Assembly (NCBI GenBank): GCA_963668715.1 | Contig: OY764960.1 | Span: forward strand, 3,953,438 to 4,017,437 | Source of the DNA: Bacteroidales bacterium | GTDB taxonomy: Bacteria > Bacteroidota > Bacteroidia > Bacteroidales > VadinHA17 | Length of the DNA: 64,000 bases | Direction: 5' to 3' | Part shown: in pieces, positions 4,450 through 55,013 of the stretch | Position numbering within the stretch: position 1 is the stretch's first letter | Layout: every line of letters begins with the position of its first letter | Position numbers and translations under genes: made by a program | The notes under the pieces: model-generated | Database searches by the model: none | What the model was told of the DNA's origin: nothing | The model's input: the letters and a program-made list of their open reading frames with translations, nothing else

Positions 4450-4581
4450 TGCATATTCCTGCGATTTCGGACACTAAATCCCGCTGAAAGCGGACAGTTG
4501 TTCCCGTTCAAAACGGACACCTGATCCCGACGAAAACGGACACTTTTCACATCGTTCATTTTCGTTTATTATTTTCTAAAA

Positions 4582-6885: not shown

Positions 6886-7128
6886 CTGTATTCTCTTGTT
6901 GGTTAATAAAGCCAACAGAGATACCGATATCCCGTGGAAAATGAATGATGTGTATGAAAGTGTCCGTTTTCAGCAAGAATCACCGTCCGCTTTCAAAAGG
7001 GGCGGCTGTCCGCTTTCCGCAGGAATCCGTGTCCGTTTTCAACAAGAATTGCTGTCCGCTTTCCGCAGGAATCCGTGTCCGCTTTCCGCAAGAATGAGTG
7101 TCCGTTTTGCGCGAGAATATGCAATCTG

Positions 7129-30072: not shown

Positions 30073-30441
30073 ATGACAACAGATAAAACAAATAACATCA
30101 AGCCGGACAGACTGATACGTAGTGCTCTTGAATCGGATATTAAATTAACAATCCCTCCCGGCTTATCTGACAGTATCATACGTAAGCTGGAGAAAAGAGT
30201 TATCCTGCGAAATTTAATCCTTGAGTTAAGCTATAAAGCCGGGTTGGTACTTGCCAGTATAGCTATACTGACCACTATTTTTGTATTGTTCAACGGCAAC
30301 AGCGTCCTTGACGGACTGCTTGCTCACCTGTCCGATAATTACCGGATAGTCCTTCCTCTGCTGTCCGCCGGCATTATTACCATTCTCATTGACCAGATCG
30401 GGCTAAAGTTCTATCAGACATCAGGGAAGGAACATGTCTGA
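30073..30441 (+). CDS. Putative membrane anti-sigma factor
   Basis: Directly follows the ECF sigma gene; two C-terminal TM helices. Confidence 0.65.
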   Translation: MTTDKTNNIKPDRLIRSALESDIKLTIPPGLSDSIIRKLEKRVILRNLILELSYKAGLVLASIAILTTIFVLFNGNSVLDGLLAHLSDNYRIVLPLLSAGIITILIDQIGLKFYQTSGKEHV

Positions 30442-30710
30442 TGGAATAATGGAATAATGGAATAATGGAGTACTGGAATACTGGAATACTGGAATACTGG
30501 AATACTGGAGTACTGGAGTACTGGAGTACTGGAGTACTGGAGTACTGGAGTACTGGAGTACTGGAGTACTGGAGTACTGGAATACTGGAATACTGGAATA
30601 CTGGAATACTGGAATACTGGAATACTGGAATACTGGAATACTGGAATACTGGAACACTGGAATACTGGAATACTGGAATACTGGAATACTGGAACACTGG
30701 AATACTGGAA
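30442..30710. repeat. 8-bp tandem array 1 (TGGAATAC; variants TGGAGTAC, TGGAACAC, TGGAATAA), about 33 units
   Basis: Read directly from the sequence. Confidence 0.98.
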
Positions 30711-30715
30711 GAATT

Positions 30716-30910
30716 GAACCGAGGAGCCTGATCCCGGGGCTTCCGGGAGAAAGTGACGAACTCGCGAGTCCCGAATCTGCGATTCGAGCCTGCCTGCCGG
30801 CAGGCAGGCAGGCTCGAAAAAGCCAAGGCTTTTTCGGGACGGAAGGTGATTGTGGTCAGTGGGGGCGAGCAATGATGGAATACCTGATCATATTTACTGA
30901 ATGTTACAAA
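30716..30910 (+). repeat. Conserved non-coding module following array 1, with a nested CCTGCCTGCCGGCAGGCAGG palindrome
   Basis: GAACCGAGGAGCCTGAT...GTGACGA.CTCGCGAGT...GGTGATT.TGGT.AGTGGGGGCGAG shared with 34034-34130 and, inverted, with 41084-41205. Confidence 0.85.
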
Positions 30911-30932
30911 TTGAAATATAGTGGGGCTTTTT

Positions 30933-31532
30933 TTATTTCGTTTCAATTAAAGACAATATCTGGTCAACCGATTTGTTACACAGGTCTAGTGATTCCGAAA
31001 TACTTTCAAACACCAGTATGGCGTCAATAACAGCTCCGTCAATCAGTATTCCAATATGGTAACTCAACAAATCAACATCAATATCCTGAGATATCTGTCT
31101 TTCTTTTTGGGCGTTATTAAAAATATCACGAAATACTTCTATCAACCTTTCGAAATATCCTATACTCTTTTTCTTCAGATCTTCATTATTAGGATATTCT
31201 GCAAGAATATTGATATAATTCAAAGTTTCCTCTCTGGATATAGTCTCACTAATGCGTTGAAAAGGCTCAAAGACTGCATAGATAAGCATTCTCATCTTTT
31301 CATTCAGAGTCAGGTCAGGATTTTGTACAATCTCGTCAAATTGCCTGTAATTTTTAAAGAAAAAATCATCAATTGTATCGATAAATAACTCTCCTTTTCT
31401 TTTAAAATGATGATAAAATGCTCCTTTTGAAGTGTTTGCCTGTTCGATAATTTCATTTATACCAACAGAATATCCCTTTTGCAGAAATAAGCGCAAGGCA
31501 GTTTCTTTTATCCTTTTTTTGGTATCATTCAT
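30933..31532 (-). CDS. TetR/AcrR-family regulator
   Basis: HTH 'LFLQKGYSVGINEIIEQANTSKGAFYHHF'. Confidence 0.95.
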   Translation of the reverse strand: MNDTKKRIKETALRLFLQKGYSVGINEIIEQANTSKGAFYHHFKRKGELFIDTIDDFFFKNYRQFDEIVQNPDLTLNEKMRMLIYAVFEPFQRISETISREETLNYINILAEYPNNEDLKKKSIGYFERLIEVFRDIFNNAQKERQISQDIDVDLLSYHIGILIDGAVIDAILVFESISESLDLCNKSVDQILSLIETK

Positions 31533-31590
31533 CTGTAATCTATGTAAATAAATTGAATTGGCATTTCAGGGCTTAAAATTATACTATTAT

Positions 31591-33015
31591 TTAAACTGCA
31601 TATTCCTTATCCCATACTTTTTGTGTTACTTTATGTAACTCTTCATCATATTTTAGCATATTCCTATAATATTCATCATCAAGCAGTATTTCGTCAGCTA
31701 TACTGTCAGCACCTTTTGTTCCAGGTACAATGATATTCTTTCTGAAATTATCGTAATGGTCACGTATTGAACATGGCATCAGCAGATTATCAGACGTCTT
31801 CCTGTCTTTAAGCTGTGTTTCGTACTGCCATTTACGCCCTTTTACCATCATAGGTGCATTAAGCACATCAAGTAATCTTTTATTGTTGGCATACAACCTG
31901 TTTACATTATCGATGACATACGGAACAAAGACACAAGGCATAATATTTCCATTCCAGTCGATATAGAAATAACCGCCATTACGACCATAAGCTATACAAC
32001 CGTTGGTAAGCATACCCCCATTCCAGAAATCGGCCATGGGATATTTCTTTTTTTCGAGCAGGTTTTCCCATTTACGGAAAAGTTCCAAACGCGATTTGGG
32101 ATCGGGCACATTTTCGAAAGCCGATTTACCGCGTCCTATCGGCATTAACTGGAACTGCCACATGAAGGTTGCACCAATTTCATCAAAACAGTATTCATAA
32201 AACTCATCCGAAAGCAAAATGTCGACATTTTGTTTTGTCGCGGTTAAAGATAATATGAAAGGTACGCCGTATTTCTTAAGATTATCAGTAGCACTGATAA
32301 TTCTTTTGAATACGCCTTTACCCCTACGCCTGTCAGTCTCACTTTCATAGCCCTCAATCGATATAGCAGGTAAGGCATTACCTGCTTCCAGAAGGCGAAG
32401 CGCCGTCTTATCATCGATAAGTGTGCCATTCGTATAAAACATGAAGAGCATATCCTGATGTTTTTCAAAAATATCGAACAATGTTTTATCTCCATCTTTG
32501 TACATTAACGGCTCTCCACCGCTTATCACAATAAACCGCCCGACAGCATCGTCCCAAAATTCTTTTACCATTTTATCAAACACTTCAAACGATAAATAAG
32601 GTGTTGTTTTTTTGTCGCTGCATGCATAACAATCCGCACAATTCAGATTGCACCGCTGTGTCGGCGATATAACAAGGAAACTGGGAGGCTGTGTTCCATA
32701 ATTTTTCTCATATTCCCGTATTTTCCGCCGGTAAGCGTCCCTGTCAGCATGAAAAGCTCCTTCTATAAGGACATATATCAATCTATCCAGTACTTTTTTC
32801 GATATATAGCCCTTATTAAAATTAATGATTGTACGACGAAAAAGGGAATCGACCCATTGATACTTCCGCATCTTAACCAGGTGTATTTCGTTGTCCACAT
32901 CCAAAACAATAGATTTGTATAACCTCCTGCCAAGCCTTTTTAGCAGGATTTCCCTGCCAAGCCTGGAATCAACAATCGACTGAGTAGTTTTTACCAAATA
33001 AGTTATGTTATTCAT
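31591..33015 (-). CDS. Radical SAM protein with a C-terminal SPASM/Twitch-like region
   Basis: CNLNCADC, 'ISGGEPL', 'FYTNGTL', 'GCIAYGR...YIDWNGNIMPCVF'. Confidence 0.9.
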   Translation of the reverse strand: MNNITYLVKTTQSIVDSRLGREILLKRLGRRLYKSIVLDVDNEIHLVKMRKYQWVDSLFRRTIINFNKGYISKKVLDRLIYVLIEGAFHADRDAYRRKIREYEKNYGTQPPSFLVISPTQRCNLNCADCYACSDKKTTPYLSFEVFDKMVKEFWDDAVGRFIVISGGEPLMYKDGDKTLFDIFEKHQDMLFMFYTNGTLIDDKTALRLLEAGNALPAISIEGYESETDRRRGKGVFKRIISATDNLKKYGVPFILSLTATKQNVDILLSDEFYEYCFDEIGATFMWQFQLMPIGRGKSAFENVPDPKSRLELFRKWENLLEKKKYPMADFWNGGMLTNGCIAYGRNGGYFYIDWNGNIMPCVFVPYVIDNVNRLYANNKRLLDVLNAPMMVKGRKWQYETQLKDRKTSDNLLMPCSIRDHYDNFRKNIIVPGTKGADSIADEILLDDEYYRNMLKYDEELHKVTQKVWDKEYAV

Positions 33016-33048
33016 GATTTTATTTTGTTATGTTATTATTTCGACCAG

Positions 33049-33062
33049 ACAGACCGGTCTGT
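33049..33062. promoter_or_regulatory. Candidate TetR operator, perfect 14-bp palindrome ACAGACCGGTCTGT
   Basis: Perfect palindrome 34 bp upstream of the radical SAM start; a TetR gene lies in the same unit. Confidence 0.55.
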
Positions 33063-33145
33063 ATATACAAAATAAATAAAAACATCACAAATTAACAGCT
33101 GAAAATCAAAATATTTTACAGATTGCTGATTAAGAGGTGGTTGTA

Positions 33146-34036
33146 TAATACTGGAATACTGGAATACTGGAATACTGGAATACTGGAATACTGGAATACT
33201 GGAATACTGGAATACTGGAATACTGGAATACTGGAGTACTGGAGTACTGGAATACTGGAATACTGGAATACTGGAATACTGGAGTACTGGAGTACTGGAG
33301 TACTGGAATACTGGAATACTGGAATACTGGAATACTGGAGTACTGGAGTACTGGAGTACTGGAATACTGGAATACTGGAATACTGGAATACTGGAATACT
33401 GGAATACTGGAGTACTGGAGTACTGGAATACTGGAATACTGGAATACTGGAATACTGGAGTACTGGAGTACTGGAGTACTGGAATACTGGAATACTGGAA
33501 TACTGGAATACTGGAATACTGGAATACTGGAATACTGGAATACTGGAATACTGGAATACTGGAATACTGGAATACTGGAATACTGGAATACTGGAGTACT
33601 GGAATACTGGAGTACTGGAGTACTGGAGTACTGGAGCACTGGAATACTGGAATACTGGAGTACTGGAGTACTGGAGTACTGGAGTACTGGAGTACTGGAG
33701 TACTGGAGTACTGGAGTACTGGAGCACTGGAGTACTGGAATACTGGAATACTGGAGTACTGGAATACTGGAGTACTGGAGTACTGGAGTACTGGAGTACT
33801 GGAGTACTGGAGTACTGGAATACTGGAATACTGGAATACTGGAGTACTGGAGTACTGGAATACTGGAATACTGGAGTACTGGAATACTGGAATACTGGAA
33901 TACTGGAATACTGGAATACTGGAATACTGGAGTACTGGAATACTGGAATACTGGAATACTGGAATACTGGAATACTGGAGTACTGGAGTACTGGAATACT
34001 GGAATACTGGAGCACTGGAGCACTGAAATAATGGAA
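33146..34036. repeat. 8-bp tandem array 2 (TGGA[A/G]TAC), about 110 units with higher-order periodicity
   Basis: Read directly; 33301-33360 is identical to 33421-33480. Confidence 0.98.
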
Positions 34037-34130
34037 CCGAGGAGCCTGATTCCGAGGCTTCGGGAGAAGGTGACGAGCTCGCGAGTGGCAGGTGATTATG
34101 GTTAGTGGGGGCGAGTAATGATGTAATGAT
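34034..34130 (+). repeat. Conserved non-coding module, copy 2, following array 2
   Basis: Homologous to 30716-30890, without the nested palindrome. Confidence 0.85.
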
Positions 34131-34307
34131 GGAATGATAGTAAGTAGAAGGGATCAGGGATTAAGCACGGATCTGGAGATCCGCGCCAGCAAATAGGATA
34201 AGGGATTAGGCGGAGGGCGGAAGGGTTTAGATGATTGATAATGAATTTAATGAGACGAAAGACAAACCCTTCGACGAGCCTCAGGCGGGCGACTAAAGAC
34301 GAAATAT

Positions 34308-34883
34308 TCAAAAAATAAAATCAAATCTTATTTCCGGGTTTCCGTAAATCTCATACTCATCGGGTGTAACGGCCCACAGAAAGGAGATATTGACAGATGA
34401 CCGCATTCCCAGTCCCTGACTGATACCCAGTCCCGCAAGACCCGTATGTTCCCAGAACCGTGATCTGCCGGAATAACCCAGCCAGAAATCCGATCTCAGG
34501 CTAAGGGCTTCGTATTCTCCCTGCACATAGAAACCCAGTTTCATACCCAGGGGAATGAACTGGCTGATATCATTGATAAAATAAAACCTCATGTATGTCC
34601 TGCCTCCGTAGATATCAGTATTAGTATACTGGTTACGAAAATACTGATATTTGGGGCCGGCAGCCACGGCAAGTCTCGGCAGGAGCCAGAACCCGGCAAC
34701 AGGCGACACTTCCAGGTTGGTAACAGTACCGAACTGTAAACCGAAACTACCACCGTAGAAAAGCCTTTCTGCAAAAGGAGGGGCTTCAGTCCTTCGCCCG
34801 TCACGCTGTGCATTCAGGGGATGACCACACAGAACTGTCAGCGTTAAAATTGCTATTATATAATGTTTTGATAAACCGGACAT
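34308..34883 (-). CDS. Outer-membrane beta-barrel-like protein
   Basis: Signal peptide from MSGLSKHY; alternating aromatic/Gly strands; terminal Phe. Confidence 0.75.
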   Translation of the reverse strand: MSGLSKHYIIAILTLTVLCGHPLNAQRDGRRTEAPPFAERLFYGGSFGLQFGTVTNLEVSPVAGFWLLPRLAVAAGPKYQYFRNQYTNTDIYGGRTYMRFYFINDISQFIPLGMKLGFYVQGEYEALSLRSDFWLGYSGRSRFWEHTGLAGLGISQGLGMRSSVNISFLWAVTPDEYEIYGNPEIRFDFIF

Positions 34884-34962
34884 TTCTCTGCAGGGCAAAA
34901 TAATTTTTAAATTTGCATGCAATAATACGAAATTTGGATAAATAAACGGAAACACAAGGCGT

Positions 34963-35658
34963 ATGAATATAATTATCACCGGAGCCAGCAGGGGTATCGG
35001 AAGAGATATAAGCCTGTTACTGGCCGGGAGCAGGGAAAACAGGATACTGGCCGTAGCAAGATCTGAAAAGGAGCTCAGGGAGCTTTCTGAAGAGACCGTG
35101 CACAATAATATAAGCTATATGGCTTCCGATATCAATAAAAGCCTTAAAAGCCCTGAAAAGCTGCTAAAAGAGGTCGATAAGGTATTCGACAGTATTGATA
35201 TACTGGTCAATAATGCAGGTATACTCTTTCATAAGTCACTGGATGAACTTAAGGAAGATGAGATAAGGCTTATGAACGAGACCAATTTTATCAGCCCTCT
35301 GTTACTGATAAAGCTTCTTTCCGGCAAATTTACAAGAGGTTCTCATATTTTAAATATCAGCAGCATGGGCGGTTTCCAGGGAAGTTCAAGGTACCAGGGT
35401 ATGGCTGTTTACAGTGCAACAAAGGCGGCTTTGGCCAATCTTACCGAAAGCCTGGCAGCAGACTATGCAGACCGTGGTATCTTTTTCAACTGCCTTGCTC
35501 TTGGTGCCGTGCAGACGGAGATGCTGGAGGAGGCCTTCCCGGGGTATAAAGCGCCGGTCAGCTCAAAGGATATGGCTGAATTCATAAGCTGGTTTGCAAT
35601 GGAAGGAAAGAAATTCTTCAACGGTAAGGTACTGCCTGTATCAGTCAGTAATCCTTAG
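34963..35658 (+). CDS. SDR-family oxidoreductase
   Basis: TGASRGIG, NNAG, YSATK. Confidence 0.95.
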   Translation: MNIIITGASRGIGRDISLLLAGSRENRILAVARSEKELRELSEETVHNNISYMASDINKSLKSPEKLLKEVDKVFDSIDILVNNAGILFHKSLDELKEDEIRLMNETNFISPLLLIKLLSGKFTRGSHILNISSMGGFQGSSRYQGMAVYSATKAALANLTESLAADYADRGIFFNCLALGAVQTEMLEEAFPGYKAPVSSKDMAEFISWFAMEGKKFFNGKVLPVSVSNP

Positions 35659-35720
35659 AATTCAGAATATGATCCTGATTTTCTCCGGGGCAGTGATGAA
35701 AGCCGTGCCCGTGGCCAGAC

Positions 35721-36794
35721 TTATTTATACTCTTTGATCTTCAGCCTGTTGTCTATAGCCATCAGTCCGCTGTGAGCAAGCGCTTTTAACTCGTCTTCAC
35801 CGGGATATACAACAATTGCGGCAATAAAGCCTGTCATTACCCTGATACGTTCGACATGCTGTTCCTGGTAAGCCATTCCTCCCGTGAGTATGATGGCATC
35901 AACCTCTCCCCCAAGCACTGCAGCAGCAGCTGCTATCTCCCTGGCTATCTGGTATGACGACGCTTCGCGAACAAGCTTTGCCTCTTCATCCCCTTCATCG
36001 GCTCTCCTGCATACCTCACTGAAATCATTTGTATTAAGGTATGCAACCATACCTCCCTGACCTGTGATCATTTTCAATACCTGCTCTTTTGAATAACGGC
36101 CGCTGAAGCACAACCCGGCAAGCTGAGCTGCCGGCAGAGAGCCTGATCGTTCCGGTGAAAAAGGCCCGTCGCCGTTGAGGGCATTATTAACATCGATAAC
36201 CCTGCCCTTCCTGTGTACGCCTATGCTTATCCCTCCTCCCATATGGGCAACAATAAGATTCATATCTTCATATTCCTTCCCTGTCTCCTCCGCATATGCT
36301 CGTGCCACTGCTTTCTGGTTCAGGGCATGGAACACAGACCTCCTGGGAAGAAGAGGGTGCCCCGACAATCTGGCCACATCCTGCAACTCGTCAACCACAA
36401 CAGGGTCAACGATAAAGGCTTTGGCCCCCTTTATATCACCGGCTATATCATAGGCTATCAATCCCCCAAGGTTACTGGCATGTTCTCCTCTTTCCGCCAG
36501 TTTAAGCTCTTTCAGCATAAGGTCGTTTACCTCATAAACGCCCGACTCAATAGGTTTCAGCATTCCGCCTCTTCCTACTACGGCCTTTATCTCGTCAGGA
36601 TCGATATCATGATCAGCCAGTTCCTTCATTATCAATTCTTTCCTGAACAAAAACTGATCACTTACCCTTATATAGGCGGACAGCTCATCTGCACTGTGCC
36701 GTATTGTTGATTCAAACAGGAGCTCATCATTAGAATATACACCCAGCTTGGTTGATGTTGAACCGGGATTAACGGCCAGTATCAATCTTCTCAT
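35721..36794 (-). CDS. buk: Butyrate kinase
   Basis: NPGSTSTK, GRGG, HASNLG, HALNQKA, AHMGGGIS. Confidence 0.97.
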   Translation of the reverse strand: MRRLILAVNPGSTSTKLGVYSNDELLFESTIRHSADELSAYIRVSDQFLFRKELIMKELADHDIDPDEIKAVVGRGGMLKPIESGVYEVNDLMLKELKLAERGEHASNLGGLIAYDIAGDIKGAKAFIVDPVVVDELQDVARLSGHPLLPRRSVFHALNQKAVARAYAEETGKEYEDMNLIVAHMGGGISIGVHRKGRVIDVNNALNGDGPFSPERSGSLPAAQLAGLCFSGRYSKEQVLKMITGQGGMVAYLNTNDFSEVCRRADEGDEEAKLVREASSYQIAREIAAAAAVLGGEVDAIILTGGMAYQEQHVERIRVMTGFIAAIVVYPGEDELKALAHSGLMAIDNRLKIKEYK

Positions 36795-36797
36795 AAC

Positions 36798-37715
36798 TTA
36801 CTGTTTTTCTGTCATCAGGCAGGCAAGAGCTATACAATAAAACTTTGATTTTTCACTTTCACTTCTTGACATAAGGACCACAGGTACCTCAGTACCCATA
36901 AGCATACCCGCCAGCTCTCCCCTGCCGAAGAGCATAAGTCCTTTATAAAAGGGATTACAAGATTCGAGGGATGGAAAAAGAAGGATATCGGCATCACCTC
37001 CTACAGGTGTGTCTACTCCCTTTATTATTACACTTTCGCTGTCGCATGCCAGAAAAATATCAAGCGGTCCGTCCATTATACACGGGCTTATCTGTCCTCT
37101 CTGGGCCATTTTACACATAATGGCATAATCCACAGAATTCTGAAAATGCCTGCTCATCTTTTCCGATGCGCCTATAAGCGCTACTTTGGGTTTCTCTATA
37201 CCGAATTTCGATGCCATACCTATAGCATATTCGGCCATTGCCACCTTCTGTTCCAGGTCGGGAAAAGGGAGCACCGCCGTGTCGGTAATAAAGAGCAACT
37301 TATGATAGCCGGGCAGGCCGACAGCGCATACATAGCTTAATACCGCTCCCGGTTTCATCAGGCCTTTTTCTTTATCCAGTACCGATTTCAAAAATTTATC
37401 GGTACCTATCAGTCCCTTCATCAGTATATCCGCATCCCCCGACTTCACCATCCTTACAGTCTCTGCTGCCGCCTCCTTTTCATCCTTTACATGCTCTATA
37501 CTGAAAAGGCCCGTATCAATTCCCATTCCGGCAGCAGTCTTTTCTATCTCTTCTTTGTCTCCATACAGGTAAGCATCAACAAGGCCCTCTTTTACCGCTT
37601 TTTCCACTGCGCCGAGGGTATTCTCATCCTGGGCCCATGTAACAACCAGCACGGGCTTATCTTTTCTGTCTTTTACAGCATCAACAAGTTGATCGAGAGA
37701 TTTTATCATACGCAT
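36798..37715 (-). CDS. Phosphate butyryltransferase-like (PTA_PTB), paralogue 2
   Basis: 'ILMKG', 'DGPL', 'MSRSES'; next to buk. Confidence 0.85.
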   Translation of the reverse strand: MRMIKSLDQLVDAVKDRKDKPVLVVTWAQDENTLGAVEKAVKEGLVDAYLYGDKEEIEKTAAGMGIDTGLFSIEHVKDEKEAAAETVRMVKSGDADILMKGLIGTDKFLKSVLDKEKGLMKPGAVLSYVCAVGLPGYHKLLFITDTAVLPFPDLEQKVAMAEYAIGMASKFGIEKPKVALIGASEKMSRHFQNSVDYAIMCKMAQRGQISPCIMDGPLDIFLACDSESVIIKGVDTPVGGDADILLFPSLESCNPFYKGLMLFGRGELAGMLMGTEVPVVLMSRSESEKSKFYCIALACLMTEKQ

Positions 37716-37716
37716 A

Positions 37717-38619
37717 TTATTTAGCTGTTGCAGCAGCCAGCATTATACTATCGTATTTGGCCTGTTCGCTGTCGGAACGTGATGTAAGCACTATAGGCGC
37801 CGAGGCTCCCAGTATCATGGATGCCACCTTGGCCTGAGCAAAGAAGACAAGAGATTTATACAGCACATTACCAACTTCAATATCAGGTATCAACAGCAGA
37901 TCGGTATCTCCTGCAACTTCAGACCGTATGCCTTTTTGAACCGACGATTCCAGGCTGACTGCATTATCGAAGGCAAGCGGACCGTCGATAATACAATTTT
38001 TTATCTGGTCGCGCTGGTTCATTTTTGATAACAAAGCAGCATCAAGGGTTGCCTGCATGCTTTCATTGACCATCTCAACAGCCCCCAGAACAGCTACTTT
38101 CGGCATTTCGATACCAAGCGTATTGAGACAGTAAACCGAGTTATTGACAATAGCGATCTTATCCTGCAGGCTGGGTGAGATATTCATTGCCACATCGGCC
38201 ACAGCAATCAGCTTATGGTATGTACCTACTTCAAACAAAGCTATATGTGATAACAGTTTACCTGTTCTCAAGCCCCATTGCTTATTAAGCACAAGCTTTA
38301 ATACGGTGGAAGTACCCACTTTACCTTTCATGAGTACATCAGCCTCTTTGCTGCTTACCATTTTTATAGCCAACTCGGTGCATTTTTCAGGATCAGACTC
38401 ATGAATGATCTTTACACCATCAATATTAAATTTGTATTCTGCAGCTATTCTCTTAATTTCTTTTTCATTTCCAATGAGCACAGGCACAATAACTTTATCT
38501 TCAGCTGCTTTAAGAACTGCACCCAGCGACTGACGGTCGTGTGCCGATGCCAATACAAGTCGCCTTACCGGTTTATCTCCCAGTAATTTTTTTAGTTCAC
38601 TTAGTTTCTTCAGGGTCAT
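37717..38619 (-). CDS. ptb: Phosphate butyryltransferase
   Basis: 'LMKG', 'DGPLAFDNAVS', 'GNVLYKSL', 'LTSRSDS'. Confidence 0.9.
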   Translation of the reverse strand: MTLKKLSELKKLLGDKPVRRLVLASAHDRQSLGAVLKAAEDKVIVPVLIGNEKEIKRIAAEYKFNIDGVKIIHESDPEKCTELAIKMVSSKEADVLMKGKVGTSTVLKLVLNKQWGLRTGKLLSHIALFEVGTYHKLIAVADVAMNISPSLQDKIAIVNNSVYCLNTLGIEMPKVAVLGAVEMVNESMQATLDAALLSKMNQRDQIKNCIIDGPLAFDNAVSLESSVQKGIRSEVAGDTDLLLIPDIEVGNVLYKSLVFFAQAKVASMILGASAPIVLTSRSDSEQAKYDSIMLAAATAK

Positions 38620-38652
38620 GGGTCAAATGGGTTTTATTATATTACAATAATA

Positions 38653-39867
38653 TTATGTTTTTTTCTTTTCTGATACAATATTTTTAGTATCAGTGGCAAT
38701 AACCAACTCTTCGTCCGTTGTTATTGTCATAACGGTAACTGACGATGAAGGTTTGGATATAACAAGATCAAGTCCTCTCTGTTCATTATTCGTTTCTTCG
38801 TCGAATTCTATACCCAGGAATTCCATATCCTTACAGATCATTCTTCTCATATTATGATCATTCTCTCCTATTCCTCCCGTAAAAACAAGTATGTCGAGAC
38901 CGTTCAGTGCGGCAGCATATGCCCCGATAAACTTTTTCACCTTGTAGGCATACATATCAAGGGCCAGGACAGCCCTTTTATTTCCCTCAGCAGCAGCGCT
39001 TTCCAGGTCTCTCATGTCAGACGACAGGTTTGTAATACCCATCATGCCACTCTTCTTATTGATCATATTACTAACACCCTGAACGTTGAGATTCTCTTTA
39101 TCAGCAATATAGATAAGCACTCCGGGATCTATCTCTCCTGTTCTGGTACCCATTATCAGTCCGTCGACAGGAGTAAAGCCCATAGATGTATCGATCGATT
39201 TACCGTTTTTTATAGCAGCTACCGATGCTCCATTGCCCAGGTGACAGGTCACTATCTTTAGTTTACCGATATCTTTCCCAAGAATGCCGGCTGCTTTTTT
39301 TGCCACAAACTTATGGCTTGTTCCGTGAAATCCGTATTTTCTTATACGGTACTTATTATAATAATCATAAGGTATGGCATACATATATGCATAGTCGGGC
39401 ATAGTCTGATGGAAGGAAGTGTCAAAAACAGCAACCTGGGGAACCCCGGGCACCAGTTTTTCAACGGACAGTATACCTTTCAGGTTTGCCGGGTTATGCA
39501 GGGGAGCCAGTTCGCAGCACTTCTCAATATCTTTTTTAACCTTACTGTCTATCAATACACTTTCAGTAAAGTTCTCGCCTCCGTGGGCCACTCTGTGTCC
39601 TACTGCCATTATATCCCTTACATCTTTTATAACGCCCCATTCCTTATGTGTAAGGGCTTCTATAACCAGGTTTATGCCTATTGTATGGTCAGGTATATCC
39701 GTTACAATTTTTTTAGGATCCTTACCGTCTGGTTTATGAGTAAGTATACTGTCACTTATCCCTATCCTTTCAACAAGGCCGCTGGCTGTTACCCTGGCGT
39801 CATTGCTTATGTCAAAAACTTTATATTTTATTGAGGAGCTACCGCAGTTGAGAACGAGAATTACCAT
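38653..39867 (-). CDS. ackA: Acetate kinase (start taken at MVILVLNCGSSS)
   Basis: NCGSSSIK, GHRVAHGG, LAPLHNP, YGFHGTSH, HLGNGAS, FTGGIGEN. Confidence 0.97.
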   Translation of the reverse strand: MVILVLNCGSSSIKYKVFDISNDARVTASGLVERIGISDSILTHKPDGKDPKKIVTDIPDHTIGINLVIEALTHKEWGVIKDVRDIMAVGHRVAHGGENFTESVLIDSKVKKDIEKCCELAPLHNPANLKGILSVEKLVPGVPQVAVFDTSFHQTMPDYAYMYAIPYDYYNKYRIRKYGFHGTSHKFVAKKAAGILGKDIGKLKIVTCHLGNGASVAAIKNGKSIDTSMGFTPVDGLIMGTRTGEIDPGVLIYIADKENLNVQGVSNMINKKSGMMGITNLSSDMRDLESAAAEGNKRAVLALDMYAYKVKKFIGAYAAALNGLDILVFTGGIGENDHNMRRMICKDMEFLGIEFDEETNNEQRGLDLVISKPSSSVTVMTITTDEELVIATDTKNIVSEKKKT

Positions 39868-39963
39868 ATGCGTCAGATTATTTTTTAATATTATTTTAAA
39901 TATAATAATTAAGATCAGAATGTACCAATACAACCGTCTTAAAACACAATAAAATTTGTATTA

Positions 39964-40959
39964 TCAGGCAGACTGGTTTGCCGTTATTGCCACGAGGCTT
40001 ACTATATCGCTTACAGAACAACCTCTTGACAGGTCATTTATAGGAGCAGCCATACCCTGAAGGACCGGTCCTATGGCTTCTGCCTTTCCCATTCTCTGAA
40101 CAAGCTTATACGCCACATTACCGACCTCAAGTGAAGGAAAGATCATCACATTAGCCCTTCCTGCTATAGGGCTGCCAGGAGCTTTCTGCTTTCCTATCGC
40201 TTCCACAATTGCCGCATCCGCCTGCAATTCACCATCAATCTGCAGATCAGGAGCCATTTCCTTTGCCATTTCCGTTGCTCTGACAACCTTATCAACCATT
40301 TCATGACTGGCGCTCCCCTTGGTGCTGAAGCTTATCATTGCCACCCTAGGCTCTATGCCGAGTATCGACCTTGCTGTTCCGGCAGTGGCAACTGCTATTT
40401 CGGCCAGTTCCCTGTCGGTAGGATCAGGATGAACGGCACAGTCAGCAAAAACCATAACACCATTATCACCGAATGACGGATCGGGGTGTATCATAATAAA
40501 TGAACCGGAAACAACCGATATCCCCGGCCTGGTCTTAACATACTGAAAAGCCGGTCTTAATACATCGCCGGTAGCATTGTCAGCACCGGCAACCTCGCCG
40601 TCAGCATCTCCGTTCTTGATCATCATAACCGACAGGTAAAGAGGGTTCTCTATAAGCTTCAATGCTTCTTCCCGTGTCAGTCCCTTATGTTTTCTCAGTT
40701 CCACCATCATATCAACATAATGATCCTTCATCTTATGCGACAAAGGATTGACAATCTCTGCCCTGTCTATATTCTTCAGACCATAGTCTGCTGCCAGTCT
40801 GCTTATCTCACCGGGATCGCCGATAAGAATGATCTTCGCAATGTTGCCGGCAATAATCTCGTCAGCCGCTTTCAGTGTTCTTTCCCCTGTTCCTTCCGGT
40901 AATACTATCGTTTTGTTAAGCTTACGTGCCTTTTCTTTTATATCATCTATCAATTTCAT
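39964..40959 (-). CDS. pta: Phosphate acetyltransferase
   Basis: IVLPEG, FADCAV, SFSTKGS, DGELQADAA, GPVLQG, NDLSRG. Confidence 0.97.
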   Translation of the reverse strand: MKLIDDIKEKARKLNKTIVLPEGTGERTLKAADEIIAGNIAKIILIGDPGEISRLAADYGLKNIDRAEIVNPLSHKMKDHYVDMMVELRKHKGLTREEALKLIENPLYLSVMMIKNGDADGEVAGADNATGDVLRPAFQYVKTRPGISVVSGSFIMIHPDPSFGDNGVMVFADCAVHPDPTDRELAEIAVATAGTARSILGIEPRVAMISFSTKGSASHEMVDKVVRATEMAKEMAPDLQIDGELQADAAIVEAIGKQKAPGSPIAGRANVMIFPSLEVGNVAYKLVQRMGKAEAIGPVLQGMAAPINDLSRGCSVSDIVSLVAITANQSA

Positions 40960-41083
40960 TGTAAATCAGTTATTTATGTCAAAAAATATAATTCACTAAA
41001 AGTACAAAAAAAGCTTGATATATCAATTTAAAAATCACATGATTAATGTCAGGAAACGACAAACGGCAAAAGGCAAACGACGA

Positions 41084-41250
41084 ATGGAATACCTGATTTG
41101 TATCATTCAGTAAATATGATCAGGTATTCCATCATTGTTCGCCCCCACTAACCACAATCACTATCTCCTCACGAGCTCACCCCGGAGTGCTCGGGGTTCG
41201 GTTCCAGCATTCCAGTATTCCATTGCTCCAGCTTTTCATTACTCCGGCTT
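41084..41250 (-). repeat. Conserved non-coding module, copy 3 (inverted), with a short degenerate 8-mer tail and a 14-bp hairpin
   Basis: ATGGAATACCTGAT / ATCAGGTATTCCAT stem; CGCCCCCACTAACCACAATCAC; tail TTCCAGCATTCCAGTATTCCATTGCTCCAGC. Confidence 0.75.
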
Positions 41251-41327
41251 TCAGAGCGATAATGTGTCGTACAATAGCTAACTAATTCGTAATTATATAT
41301 ATTTTTACTTTCCAAAATCAGCAAAGA

Positions 41328-44273
41328 ATGGATAGACCGGCATCACTCGACAAGCTTTCCCGGCAGCTCAGGGGAGACCTGAAATATGACAAAATAACCA
41401 AAACCATTTACAGTACCGATGCCTCAATGTATAAGGAAGAACCGGAGGCAGTGGTCTGGCCCGAAGATAAAGATGACCTTAAGAAACTCATTGCTTTTGC
41501 ACATGAAGAGGGCGCCAGTCTCATTATGAGAGGCGCCGGCACTTCACTTGCCGGGCAGGTTGTAGGGCCGGGCATAGTTGTTGACCTGAGCCGCCATATG
41601 AACAAAATACTGGAAATAAACAAAGAAGAACGATGGGTAAAGGTAGAGCCGGGAGTTGTGCTGGAAGAGATGAACCGGGAGCTTTACGGATACGGCCTGT
41701 TTTTCGGCCCTGAAACATCTACAGCAAACAGGTGTACGATAGGAGGCATGATCGGGAACAATGCATGCGGATTACATTCGTTGAGATACGGCAGCACGCG
41801 TGAGCATACCCTGGAAGTCGAAGCTCTGCTCAGTGACGGAAGTGAGGTGACCTTCAGTCCCCTGTCTGCTGATGAATTCAGGAAAAAATGTAAGCAGGAC
41901 AGCCTTGAAGGAAGCATCTACCGGTTCCTCGACGTCAATCTTAGCAACAGTGACATTGCCAAAGATATTATCAATGAATATCCCGATCCTGAAGTACCCA
42001 GAAGGAATACCGGCTATGCACTTGACATATTGCTAAAGACAAGCGCTTTCGACACAGATGAACAGAAAAAAATAAATCTTTCCACGCTTATGGCAGGTTC
42101 GGAAGGCACGCTGGCAGTGATAACTGCGGCAAAGCTGAACCTTCTTCCTCTGCCTCCCCGGCATAAAGCATTATGCTGTGTGCACCTTAAAAACAGGAAT
42201 GAAGCATATCTTGCAAACCTTATTGCATTACGTTTCGACCCGGATGCAGTGGAAATGATGGACGACAAGATACTCGAACTGACAGGTAATAATATTGAAC
42301 AGAGGAAAAACAGGTTCTTCCTGGAAGGAAAGCCGGGAGCGATACTGATAGTTGAGTTTGCCCGTGAGACAAAAAAGGAAATAGAAAAACTGTGTGATAA
42401 TATGGAAGAAGCCATGATCAAAGAAGGTTACGGCTACGCTTTCCCCAGGATATGGGGAGATGACATATCCAGGGTATGGAACCTGAGAAAAGCGGGACTG
42501 GGTGTGCTGTCAAACATGAAAGGAGATTCCAAGCCTGTAAGCCTTCTTGAAGATACGGCTGTCAGTGTGAACAAGCTTCCTGCATATATGAAAGATTTTG
42601 ATAATATGCTGGCAAAATATAATAAGGAATGTGTTTACCATGCCCATATAGGGACAGGCGAGCTTCATCTCAGACCTATACTGAATCTTAAGGACAGTAA
42701 AGATGTCGGGCTGTTCCATACTCTTGGGCAGGAAACCGCAGGCCTGGTAAAACGCTACCGGGGATCCCTCAGCGGAGAGCATGGCGACGGCAGGTTAAGA
42801 GGCGAATTTATCCCGATGATGCTGGGAGAAAAAATATATGAGAAACTCAGGGAACTGAAATATACCTGGGACCCGGATGCCATACTCAATCCCAATAAGA
42901 TAGTGGACACCCCTCCTATGAGCACATCACTGAGATATGATGCCGGCCAGGCCATCAGGGAAATACAAACATATTTCAGGTTTGAGGATACCGGCGGTTA
43001 TATAAGAGCCGCTGAAAAATGCAACGGTTCGGGCGATTGCCGTAAATCGGCAAAGATAGGCGGAACCATGTGTCCCAGCTATATGGCTACAAGAGATGAG
43101 ATGAATACCACCAGGGCCAGGGCGAATGTCCTGAGGGAATTTCTGAACGGTTCGGACGGCAGCAACTGGGCTGCCCCGGAGATATATGAGATCCTGGATC
43201 TTTGTCTTTCATGTAAGGGTTGCAAAAGCGAATGCCCTTCAAACGTCGATATGGCAAAGATGAAAACCGAATTTATGCAGAAATGGTATGACAGTCATGG
43301 CATACCGCTCAGAACGCGTCTTATTGCCTATATAAGCACTATAAACAAAATAGGCTCGCTTCTGCCGGGTGTTTTCAATTTCTTCCTTAAAAACAGGCTG
43401 TTTTCAAATACATTCAAAGGAATAATCGGTTTTGCCAGGAACAGATCAATACCTTTGCTTTACCGTGTGACACTTAAAAGATGGGCAGGGAAAAACCTGC
43501 GTATTCTGAATCCGGCACAGCCCAGGAAAAATGTTTACCTCTTTGCGGATGAGTTTACAAACTATAATGACACACTTACGGGCATTGAAGCAATAAAGCT
43601 ACTTACATCACTGGGATACAGTGTGAATATTCCCGATCACAATCTTAGTGGCAGGACTTTCCTCTCAAAGGGCTTATTGAGAAAAGCGAGAAAGATAGCG
43701 ACCGACAACGTAGTAAAACTGTCGCCTGTGATTAATAAGGATAACCCTCTGCTGGGTATAGAACCTTCCGCTATCCTGGGCTTCAGGGATGAATTTCCCG
43801 GTCTCGTTCCGGAGGAATACCGTAAGCAGGCTGAAGAGCTTTCACTAAATACCATGCTTATCGATGAGTTTATCAGCAGTGAATACAAAGAAGGCAATAT
43901 CAGTCAGGAGCTGTTTACCGGGGAGCACAGAAAAGTATTGTTACACGGGCATTGTCAGCAAAAGGCGGTAGCCGATACCACATGTACCATAGAAATGCTT
44001 TCCATTCCGGCTAACTATACTGTTGAAGAAATAAAATCAGGCTGTTGCGGCATGGCGGGATCCTTCGGGTATGAAAAGGAACATTATGATCTTTCAATGA
44101 AGGTAGGCGGGCTGGTATTATTCCCCTCCGTAAAAAACGCCGGTGCGGATACTATCATAGCAGCTTCAGGCACAAGCTGCAGGCACCAGATAAAAGACGG
44201 AACAGGAAGACAGGCATTACATCCGGTACAGATATTATATCAGGCCTTATCAGTCGGTATCAAAGGAAAATAG
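41328..44273 (+). CDS. FAD-binding/Fe-S oxidoreductase (GlcD-GlcF/YdiJ type; D-lactate dehydrogenase-like)
   Basis: RGAGTSLAGQ, SGEHGDG, CNGSGDC...CP, CLSCKGCKSECP, HGHCQQK, CCGMAGSFG. Confidence 0.92.
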   Translation: MDRPASLDKLSRQLRGDLKYDKITKTIYSTDASMYKEEPEAVVWPEDKDDLKKLIAFAHEEGASLIMRGAGTSLAGQVVGPGIVVDLSRHMNKILEINKEERWVKVEPGVVLEEMNRELYGYGLFFGPETSTANRCTIGGMIGNNACGLHSLRYGSTREHTLEVEALLSDGSEVTFSPLSADEFRKKCKQDSLEGSIYRFLDVNLSNSDIAKDIINEYPDPEVPRRNTGYALDILLKTSAFDTDEQKKINLSTLMAGSEGTLAVITAAKLNLLPLPPRHKALCCVHLKNRNEAYLANLIALRFDPDAVEMMDDKILELTGNNIEQRKNRFFLEGKPGAILIVEFARETKKEIEKLCDNMEEAMIKEGYGYAFPRIWGDDISRVWNLRKAGLGVLSNMKGDSKPVSLLEDTAVSVNKLPAYMKDFDNMLAKYNKECVYHAHIGTGELHLRPILNLKDSKDVGLFHTLGQETAGLVKRYRGSLSGEHGDGRLRGEFIPMMLGEKIYEKLRELKYTWDPDAILNPNKIVDTPPMSTSLRYDAGQAIREIQTYFRFEDTGGYIRAAEKCNGSGDCRKSAKIGGTMCPSYMATRDEMNTTRARANVLREFLNGSDGSNWAAPEIYEILDLCLSCKGCKSECPSNVDMAKMKTEFMQKWYDSHGIPLRTRLIAYISTINKIGSLLPGVFNFFLKNRLFSNTFKGIIGFARNRSIPLLYRVTLKRWAGKNLRILNPAQPRKNVYLFADEFTNYNDTLTGIEAIKLLTSLGYSVNIPDHNLSGRTFLSKGLLRKARKIATDNVVKLSPVINKDNPLLGIEPSAILGFRDEFPGLVPEEYRKQAEELSLNTMLIDEFISSEYKEGNISQELFTGEHRKVLLHGHCQQKAVADTTCTIEMLSIPANYTVEEIKSGCCGMAGSFGYEKEHYDLSMKVGGLVLFPSVKNAGADTIIAASGTSCRHQIKDGTGRQALHPVQILYQALSVGIKGK

Positions 44274-53938: not shown

Positions 53939-54640
53939 ATGAAAAAATCACTCTTTGTTCTGTCAGCCCTGTTGCTGACAATATATGCCGGCGGGCAGGA
54001 TCTCGACAATATCGTAAAAAAACATCTGAAAGCTATAAATGCCGCGAAGCTTTCCGAATTCAAATCGCTCATGGTAAAGGGATCTCTCAGCCAGCAAGGT
54101 ATGATACTTGACATGCTTATGTATGAAAAAGCCCCTGATAAACTCAAGGCCGTCACTACATTCAACGGCATGGATATAGTACAAATTGTCAACGGTGACA
54201 AGGGAATAATGATAAACCCCATGATGGGATCAACCGAACCCGTCAATATTCCCCCCGACCAGATCGAATCAATAAAAAGCAGCAGCATGCTGGGAAGCAG
54301 CATAGAGAAGGAATACAAGGCCGGTAATCTTGAAACGGACGGCGAAGGTGAGGTAGACGGAAGTCCTGCATATAAGATAAAAGTAAAGTCGCCCGTAGGA
54401 GACAGAACTGTCTATATTGACAAAAAAACATACTATATCACGCAGATAAGTATGAGTGTAAGCCAGATGGGAACGGACTATGACGTGGATATGAAAATGA
54501 GCAATTTTGAAACTATTGACGGGGTACCGCTGGCCAAAACAATAGACACATATATGAACGGAATGGCTGCGGGCAGTCTGACCTATGACAGCATACAGTT
54601 CAACGTGAGTATAGACGATTCGGAATTTGATATTAAATAA
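53939..54640 (+). CDS. Secreted LolA-like / outer-membrane lipoprotein-sorting-type protein
   Basis: Signal peptide MKKSLFVL...; beta-rich; C-terminal 'IQFNVSIDDSEF'. Confidence 0.7.
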   Translation: MKKSLFVLSALLLTIYAGGQDLDNIVKKHLKAINAAKLSEFKSLMVKGSLSQQGMILDMLMYEKAPDKLKAVTTFNGMDIVQIVNGDKGIMINPMMGSTEPVNIPPDQIESIKSSSMLGSSIEKEYKAGNLETDGEGEVDGSPAYKIKVKSPVGDRTVYIDKKTYYITQISMSVSQMGTDYDVDMKMSNFETIDGVPLAKTIDTYMNGMAAGSLTYDSIQFNVSIDDSEFDIK

Positions 54641-54641
54641 A

Positions 54642-55013
54642 GCAGCAAACCTGTAAGCCGGATTCTGTAACCCGGTCTGCTGTCTCACAGAGATAATCGG
54701 CCGGGCTTTCTGCCATTTATCTGGGCCATCCATCACTGGGTGGCTCTAACGACCTACCCCCCGGCATCGGACGAGCAATCCTCAAAGCCGGTATACATGG
54801 TCTTTCAACCCATAAGACGTACGGCGCGAAGTGTTGCCACCCCGCCCGGTGAGCTCTTACCTCACCTTTTCACCCTTACCCCGAGTGATCGGGGCGGTTA
54901 TTTTCTGTTACGCTGCTATACCCTCAGGGGTATCTTCCCGTTAGGAAGTATGGCGCTCTGCGTTGTCCGGACTTTCCTCCCCGGGTGTCCGGGGCGGCAG
55001 AACGGTTTGCTGC
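54642..55013 (-). ncRNA. rnpB: RNase P RNA (type A)
   Basis: - strand GAGGAAAGTCCGG...AGAGCGCCA...GAATCCGGCTTAC; P1 ends GCAGCAAACC / GGTTTGCTGC. Confidence 0.97.

Follow-up and report, generated by a model that had tools for sequence, protein, structure and literature searches.

Introduction

Small dispersed repeats (SDRs) are non-coding elements of 21 to 27 nucleotides (nt) that have no inverted ends, form a hairpin marked by compensatory changes, and are often nested within tandem heptamers or octamers. To our knowledge, they are lineage specific and have no known transposase. In the BOX elements of Streptococcus pneumoniae, boxB repeats of 45 nt stand between fixed ends, boxA and boxC, and we know of no transposase for them either. 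SDRs of Nostoc punctiforme, and the heptamer arrays called STRR of heterocystous cyanobacteria, were reportedly described by Elhai and colleagues in Genome Res in 2008. Here we analyze an element that can be set beside these systems. It lies in a 64,000-nt stretch of the genome of a Bacteroidales bacterium (contig OY764960.1, positions 3,953,438 to 4,017,437; the whole stretch is called the window below), which contains three copies of a 71- to 88-nt non-coding module, each within units of the 8-mer NNNNTGGA. The module is a passenger in such arrays and not their maker, because most arrays of this type (TGGA arrays) exist without it, and it represents a real family, undescribed and restricted to one genus, within a well-known class of bacterial repeat DNA.

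REP and BIME mosaics and REPIN-RAYT systems consist of extragenic, high-copy hairpin bricks arranged in mosaics, with pairing that is specific to a single strand (PMC3116915, PMC3733652). Long simple sequence repeats with units of 7 to 8 nt are also on record (Mrazek et al. 2007, as cited in PMC4679880). Arrays of the heptamer TAACTGA are found in Beggiatoaceae, Cyanobacteria, and some Bacteroidetes, and slippage is accepted as the mode of growth of 7- to 8-nt arrays (PMC4679880).

The module resembles the SDRs in that it is tiny, non-coding, without inverted ends, and lineage specific. Embedding in arrays, nesting, and a hairpin maintained by compensatory changes, which characterize an SDR-like element, were all found. 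However, it belongs to another phylum, with no likeness in sequence expected, is longer (71 to 88 nt), has a second conserved domain that is G-rich and unpaired, and always stands in phase after AA. The SDRs are the closest known parallel for guests of arrays, but because size and phylum differ, the likeness is one of function and is not shown to reflect common descent. The arrays themselves are like long simple sequence repeats and STRR: they are intergenic, have periods of 7 to 8 nt and from a few to more than 100 units, occur in many families per genome, and have a sporadic phyletic distribution. As summarized in PMC4679880, those reports cover arrays only, with no structured guest element residing in phase. 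BOX elements are likewise modular non-coding repeats with a variable number of tandem units; in our case, however, the units are 7 to 8 nt long and external to the conserved module, and one family of units can take the place of another.

As in REP and BIME systems, hairpin bricks occur here in mosaics, pairing is specific to a single strand, Y1 (HUH) genes are present in the same genomes, and a sister brick flanks a RAYT-like gene in one relative (G007). REP sequences, however, are imperfect palindromes of 20 to 40 nt that carry a GTAG or CGTC tag and frequently form inverted doublets, whereas the module has neither tag nor inverted doublets and its 3′ half is not palindromic. A REPIN-RAYT system has a cognate RAYT flanked by the same repeat, and no Y1 gene that we examined was flanked in this way. 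Terminal inverted repeats, which define a MITE, are absent; the ends, CCGAG... and ...GCGAGCAA, are direct and not inverted. In a telomerase- or retroelement-like system, a reverse transcriptase would be linked to the module and the module would contain a template for the unit; neither was found. The proposal of a MITE- or REP-like element, made in the preliminary description of this DNA, is supported in that the module is a dispersed non-coding repeat of this general kind, with about 50 copies here and a presence in 10 of the 16 genomes of its genus, but one that lacks the terminal inverted repeats of MITEs and the defining features of REP/RAYT systems.

Results

Most 8-mer arrays lack the module

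Positions given below are those of the whole window; coordinates elsewhere in the same genome carry the prefix C1:, and relatives and their loci are designated by G and L numbers, respectively. The window is part of a complete 4.27-Mb genome with 40% G+C. Within it, the motif GTGATTNTGGTNAGTGGGGGCGA has exactly three matches (30846 and 34092 on the plus strand and 41139 on the minus strand), while none was expected from 100 shuffles. The three copies so marked, called copies 1, 2, and 3, are mutually alignable, and in all three the array has the orientation of the module.

A profile search of the genome gave 52 matches at about 45 loci. The core of the module extends from CCGAG to GCGAGCAA. 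Its left neighbor is ..TGGA(A/G) in 44 of the 45 intact copies, window copy 1 having ..TTGAA instead. With a slash marking the junction, intact copies have ..TGGAA/CCGAG as their left boundary and GCGAGCAA/TNNTGGAA.. as their right one, and in most of them units follow the module as well as precede it. Because the junctions match, the units on both sides are in phase, and excision of the module would restore an unbroken array.

When all NNNNTGGA arrays of at least three units were examined, 39 of 118 touched a module, every one of the 39 in the module's orientation, and 79 had no module. Among the arrays of at least 12 units, the fraction was 6 of 19. Arrays without a module typically start just past a stop codon and then run into other repeat bricks. 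Nor is the 8-mer alone in this genome: Tandem Repeats Finder (TRF) returned 181 rows with period 7 and 236 with period 8, belonging to dozens of unit families. Modules occur singly or in direct tandem, never as inverted pairs, and at three loci modules that differ in the type of their hairpin, P1, share a single array. At C1:2611426-2611722, two TGGA arrays of 18 units each meet head to head as inverted copies, which would allow a hairpin of some 140 bp.

These results bear on what the preliminary description had claimed. Its three modules, their arrays, and the motif are real, and each copy is indeed preceded by the 8-mer in the same orientation, but the description generalized too far beyond the window. 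That the arrays are always joined to the module was a local impression, and their occurrence across the genome independently of it is the very finding that was named in advance as refuting the association. The array is also not a one-sided tail, given that units flank the module on both sides.

The module is conserved in relatives and lies in unrelated arrays

By exact-pattern scan and whole-genome searches, 10 of the 16 genomes of the genus were found to have the module, and all 25 genomes from other genera in the search of relatives lacked it. A covariance model run against 400 genomes of the order gave only two weak single homologues. Diverged homologues stand at L087 and L088, in two other families of the order; at L087 the 3′ domain occurs once more, in partial form, beside the first, and at L088 the loop differs but GTTCGCGAG...GCGAGCAA is retained. 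One metagenome scan added 69 loci, and viral contigs contained no match to the module.

Outside the home genome, the flanking units are diverse: ACGACAA, AAGACAA, ATGCGAR, TTATGAR, TATCGAA, TTGTTGAA, ACATGAA, AAAAGTA, and also TGGAATAA, which represent at least eight unrelated families. AA precedes the module in 60 of 70 distinct foreign copies (GAA in 40, CAA in 16). In these 70 copies, the 7- or 8-mer before the module equals that after it in 49%, versus 11%, and at most 21%, when the pairings were shuffled. Two species have many modules (35 in G014 and 20 in G009) and no TGGA array of five or more units, and in G007 near-identical modules lie side by side, one in a TTATGAA array and the other in an ATGCGAA array. 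TGGA arrays are confined to module-bearing genomes, occurring in 8 of the 10 among the 16 of the genus. No stretch of the module core matched any flanking unit or its complement, which excludes a role as template or seed as far as can be judged from sequence.

A sister element was seen at L115, L124, and L125 (in G009 and G014). It has the P1 domain in common with the module, and its 3′ half is another hairpin, with GGTGAGTCAAT at its end. The P1 brick is thus found joined to several different 3′ bricks.

One hairpin of the module shows covariation

The module consists of the variable hairpin P1 and a conserved G-rich part with the pattern CTCGCGAG-N6-GTGATTGTGG-N3-GTGGGRGCGAGYAA. We tested 30 distinct 88-nt copies, 18 from the home genome and 12 from relatives, which aligned without gaps. 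In P1, both sides change in 8 of the 13 pairs. The proportion of P1 cells that are paired was 92.8%, versus 24 to 43% when the 3′ partner was slid along, and no shuffle attained the observed covariation score. At least eight sequence versions of P1 were seen, and its short and long forms give modules of the 71-nt and 88-nt classes, respectively. G-U pairs are frequent, being found in 17 of the 30 sequences at one pair and in 19 of the 30 at another; consequently, the helix works on the G-rich strand only.

Pairing outside P1 was not supported. The closing stem, GCTCGC/GCGAGC, showed no covariation in the 30-copy alignment, and the 28 nt that it would enclose are conserved in sequence and not in pairing. 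No consistent pairing was found for a helix within the G-rich domain or for one linking CTC(A/G)C to GAG(T/C)AA; the association of A with T in the latter two motifs looks like subfamily descent. The covariation that makes this a structured element is in one hairpin only, P1.

Comparisons with shuffled sequences gave a mixed picture. Window copies 2 and 3 folded no better than shuffles, either as RNA or as DNA (RNA z = −0.5 and +1.2, respectively). Copies of type C did better than shuffles on both strands, and in type B the G-rich strand did better (z = −2.45) but its complement did not (z = −0.16). Raw folding energies, which differ between the strands, were discarded as a sign of strand specificity, since shuffle controls attributed most of the difference to G-richness. 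Because G-rich shuffles also fold well, the evidence left for strand specificity is the G-U pairs in P1 and the type B z scores. Rfam had no match over positions 30300 to 41400, whether at the gathering score or at E values up to 1. The covariation test that the preliminary description had suggested bore out its structured module in P1 only.

A block containing the module was copied whole

Positions 30442 to 30934 of the window, about 490 nt comprising an array, module copy 1, and a further brick called the extension, are duplicated at C1:2927392-2927903, 1.06 Mb away, with 90.6% identity. In both duplicates the array begins with four to five A-type units, continues with exactly nine G-type units, and ends in a long run of A-type units; therefore, the block was copied as a whole. 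Each duplicate starts 0 to 5 nt past the stop codon of an unrelated gene. Identical modules with identical neighboring bricks were also found at genome positions 3855767 and 4074017.

On both sides the module is flanked by like units or by the dinucleotide AA, flanks that could be read as a target-site duplication of the MITE kind but look the same as those of an insertion into an array. A non-autonomous element derived from IS200/IS605 would be inserted 3′ of a short specific sequence, with neither duplication nor inverted ends and with a subterminal hairpin. The junction ..RAA/CCGRG was seen in all 45 home copies and in 60 of 70 foreign ones, and P1 lies near the left end of the module. Species with only about 80% identity in Pta share the unpaired G-rich domain and the P1 fold at nonorthologous sites. 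No autonomous parent, in which the two halves of the module would be separated by a gene, was present in the home genome or at the 69 metagenome loci.

The preliminary description had proposed a search for a linked reverse transcriptase or HUH/RAYT gene; none was linked to any module, and the nearest reverse transcriptase is about 20 kb from any of them. The home genome does have reverse transcriptases of the group II intron type, and their presence across the genus does not track the module (P = 0.30). The Y1 transposase genes do co-occur with it (10 of 10 genomes with the module versus 1 of 6 without; P = 0.0014). In G007, inverted copies of the brick GGCACGGATCTGGAGATCCGCGCCAGC flank an open reading frame (ORF) for a RAYT-like protein of 186 amino acids (aa) (L205:484-1330), and one upstream copy of the brick is fused to a P1-type hairpin. 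The home genome has at least 20 copies of this brick, one of them at 34164-34190 in the window, but no homologue of this RAYT type (best tblastn match, E = 0.13). Because the GGCACGGATCTGGAGATCCGCGCCAGC brick flanks a RAYT-like ORF in G007 and recurs in the home genome, at least part of the mosaic is REP/RAYT-like.

The home genome has two Y1_Tnp genes. One, at C1:2078933-2080510 (L012), encodes a RAYT-like protein of 168 aa and lies inside a local tandem array with a 139-nt unit; the unit carries the hairpin TTACGTCCCTAACGGGAC, and all eight of its genomic copies are around that gene. The other, at C1:2191014-2192500 (L013), encodes 150 aa and adjoins a CRISPR-like array with a repeat of about 47 nt, GTTGTGAATTGCTTTCAATTTGTGATTTAACGATCTTTGACACAGC.

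Genomic context points to a DNA element

Using crude ORF calls with repeats masked, we found the module in co-directional spacers 11 times in the sense and 12 times in the antisense orientation, which is random; divergent and convergent spacers were overrepresented. No conserved sequence lies upstream of the module, that region being array of any length, and no promoter or terminator signal near the modules was above chance. The pta spacer that contains copy 3 is syntenic in 12 relatives, where it is 188 to 211 nt long and has neither array nor module; in the home genome it is 368 nt, and the surplus is the whole mosaic block.

Some copies are truncated, some are interrupted by inserts, and an internal deletion form without P1 is present at two distant loci. 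The 70-nt insert of copy 1 belongs to an independent dispersed family that is also found within heptamer arrays of GACTGT, always after ..GT. Such nesting, a characteristic trait of mobile DNA, is a sign of a DNA element. Two other leads were dropped: the radical-SAM neighbor is not conserved in the genus and was rejected as an anchor for synteny, and the integron-like cassette sites of the window have no sequence likeness to the module, which resides in ordinary spacers.

The three copies in the window

The array upstream of copy 1 (30442 to 30710, plus strand; TGGAATAC/TGGAGTAC, 33.6 units by TRF and unit pattern) begins directly 3′ of the TGA stop codon of the ORF at 30073-30441. Copy 1 itself is interrupted. 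Its 5′ domain, consisting of the P1 hairpin and GACGAACTCGCGAGT, occupies 30716 to 30769 (plus strand); the nested 70-nt guest, CCCGAATCTGCGATTCGAG...TTTTTCGGGA, with three helices and a fold z score of −6.5, occupies 30770 to 30839 (plus strand); and the conserved G-rich 3′ domain, ending in ..GTGATTGTGGTCAGTGGGGGCGAGCAA, occupies 30840 to 30872 (plus strand). One and a half flanking 8-mer units, TGATGGAATACC, recognized by their sequence, follow at 30873-30884 (plus strand), and then the extension, TGATCATATTTACTGAATGTTACAAATTGAAATATAG..., at 30885-30934 (plus strand). The extension is a separate brick with nine genomic copies, three of which are without a module.

The array of copy 2 (33147 to 34036, plus strand) has 111 units by TRF, with A and G unit variants arranged in blocks. 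On each strand it gives rise to spurious ORFs (33116 to 34031) of about 300 aa, which automatic annotation could call as genes. Copy 2 is intact, of the 88-nt class with P1 type A, at 34033-34118 (plus strand), and is followed by degenerate 8-mer units, TGATGTAATGATGGAATGATAG, at 34119-34140 (plus strand). A REP-like brick, AGCACGGATCTGGAGATCCGCGCCAGC, at 34164-34190 (plus strand), is part of the same mosaic block.

Copy 3 (41135 to 41205, minus strand) is of the 71-nt class with the short P1 hairpin CCCCGAGCACTCCGGGG. Degenerate 8-mer units lie upstream of it at 41202-41248 (minus strand; the TRF call is 41202-41251); the tails first given as about 33, about 110, and a few degenerate units agree with TRF in all three copies. 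Downstream, positions 41084 to 41134 (minus strand) contain, besides flanking units, an extension that is truncated and a unit that is inverted, and a 7-mer array, TCGTCGTTTGCCTTTTGCCGTTTGTCGTTTC (41053 to 41083, minus strand, by TRF), closes the block. A 14-bp stem, ATGGAATACCTGAT/ATCAGGTATTCCAT, is formed by 41119-41132 with 41084-41097 (z = −5.0). The stem was correctly recognized at the outset, but ATGGAATACCTGAT lies outside the module, being composed of the final flanking unit and the beginning of the extension brick (TGATCATATTTACTG...), which is found without the module too, and the stem, built from flanking units, truncated extension, and inverted unit, is specific to copy 3.

Elsewhere in the window there are tandem repeats with a 23-nt period, GTGTCCGCTTTCCGCAAGAATCC, at 6959-7118 and 4478-4543. 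Rfam matches were obtained on the minus strand for group II intron domains D1 to D4 (1315 to 1434; 44.7 bits) and for bacterial RNase P class A (54638 to 55013; 243.5 bits).

Discussion

We believe, with a probability of about 0.6, that the module is a guest element of the REP/BIME/SDR kind that spreads as DNA within slippage-prone arrays. It neither templates nor seeds them. It is a two-part non-coding repeat, a P1 brick that varies in sequence and keeps its structure joined to a conserved G-rich brick. It belongs to a mosaic of lineage-specific intergenic repeat DNA, made of many families of 7- to 8-base arrays and of small hairpin bricks, in one genus of Bacteroidales. Because the arrays have block structure and are independent of the module, they probably form, lengthen, and shorten independently, through replication slippage and unequal recombination. 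Slippage beside a dispersed repeat, the null model offered at the start, comes closest to the evidence, except that the repeat lives specifically inside arrays. There, the guest sits between two units, in phase, directly after the AA that ends a unit, and always in the orientation of the array.

Two routes of spread may be envisaged. By one, the module is sometimes carried in a larger block together with its array, as is demonstrated for window copy 1. By the other, the module alone would probably be inserted in an element-specific and strand-specific manner; this is suggested by a junction that stays the same in at least eight unit families, by G-U/G-T pairs that work on one strand only, and by conservation of the G-rich domain across species at nonorthologous sites. 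An element-specific route is favored because copying by array homology explains neither that conservation nor the recurrent AA/CCGRG junction. The mover would most likely be a single-strand enzyme of the HUH/RAYT type acting in trans, for which we found no cognate gene.

Several observations weigh against this interpretation. The two Y1_Tnp genes of the home genome are not flanked by the module and have unrelated flanks with other hairpins. At 13 Y1 loci of relatives, a covariance model found no full module, only a P1-like half beside one RAYT-like gene, and these loci carry other REP-like hairpins; none of the Y1 genes in the home genome or at the 13 loci belongs to a TnpA that shares the ends of the module. 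When five Y1 proteins were compared by tblastn with about 110 module loci, no RAYT was detected. IS200/IS605-type elements usually show a replication-strand bias, whereas modules are oriented 19 versus 26 with respect to replication, which is no bias. The co-occurrence of Y1 genes with the module may be a clade effect, because TGGA arrays, too, occur only in module-bearing genomes. Finally, block copying is the only route seen directly, insertion of the module alone being what we infer from sequence, and both the block duplication and the P1-less derivative at two loci fit passive copying equally well.

Passive copying is the chief alternative, although we consider it unlikely. The module would then have no mobility of its own, and stretches of array bearing it would be copied by homologous or microhomology-driven recombination and segmental duplication. 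The 490-nt block duplicated with its unit pattern, the identical modules with identical neighbors (3855767 and 4074017), the deletion derivative, and the failure to find a cognate enzyme at Y1 loci or at about 110 module loci are all as it predicts, and copying by homology would automatically give the same orientation and an in-phase junction. However, passive DNA should decay, whereas the 28-nt unpaired G-rich part and the P1 fold are kept at nonorthologous sites in species with only about 80% Pta identity. Array homology also cannot account for the AA/CCGRG junction in at least eight unrelated unit families, and the two near-identical modules that stand next to each other in different array types in G007 do not fit it either. 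Less probable still, and in our opinion rather doubtful, is that the module is a structured small RNA or a cis-acting RNA family with the 8-mers in the transcript, for example as a platform for protein binding. It would suit the covariation of P1, the G-U pairs that are workable on one strand, the difference between the strands of type B, the optional, conserved, and strongly folded insert at a fixed position, and the conservation of sequence across species. It does not suit the absence of an Rfam match, the random orientation to genes, the lack of a conserved promoter-like sequence upstream, or the orthologous pta spacers of 12 relatives, where the element is absent. In addition, window copies 2 and 3 fold like shuffles, and copies are truncated, internally deleted, or split by nested inserts.

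The preliminary description had speculated that the module or its RNA seeds or templates the addition of 8-mers, in the manner of a telomerase or a retroelement tail, and this we now regard as very improbable. All three arrays in the window touch a module in the same orientation, and the genome does hold reverse transcriptases, but two thirds of the arrays are without a module, units are on both sides of it, and the core, which contains neither the unit nor its complement, is unchanged in at least eight unit families. Multiunit blocks within the arrays are what slippage or unequal exchange predicts. Reverse transcriptases are neither correlated with the module nor near it, and G014 and G009 have their modules with no TGGA arrays.

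To return to the guest element that we favor, a more specific version can be put forward only tentatively. Tandem arrays might serve as generic landing pads, into which an HUH/RAYT-like or guide-using recombinase, recognizing the 28-nt G-rich domain and P1, would insert tiny elements strand specifically after the AA that ends a unit; such elements would have no inverted ends and would cause no duplication. If this were so, arrays and their guests would coevolve, and excision footprints, like junctions, could contribute to new arrays.

That these 8-mer satellites are not made by the adjacent module removes the telomerase-like interpretation. What emerges instead is a defined family that has exact ends and two domains and numbers about 50 copies here and 20 to 35 in relatives, with 69 loci in metagenomes. 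In practical terms, its repeat blocks break short-read assemblies and yield false ORFs of up to about 300 aa. Residence in phase within many kinds of arrays parallels, in another phylum, the little-understood SDRs and STRR of cyanobacteria. If the module does insert on its own, it would offer a tractable system in which to identify the enzyme that mobilizes repeats without inverted ends or target duplications, and would help to explain why some bacterial lineages fill their spacers with arrays of 7- and 8-mers.

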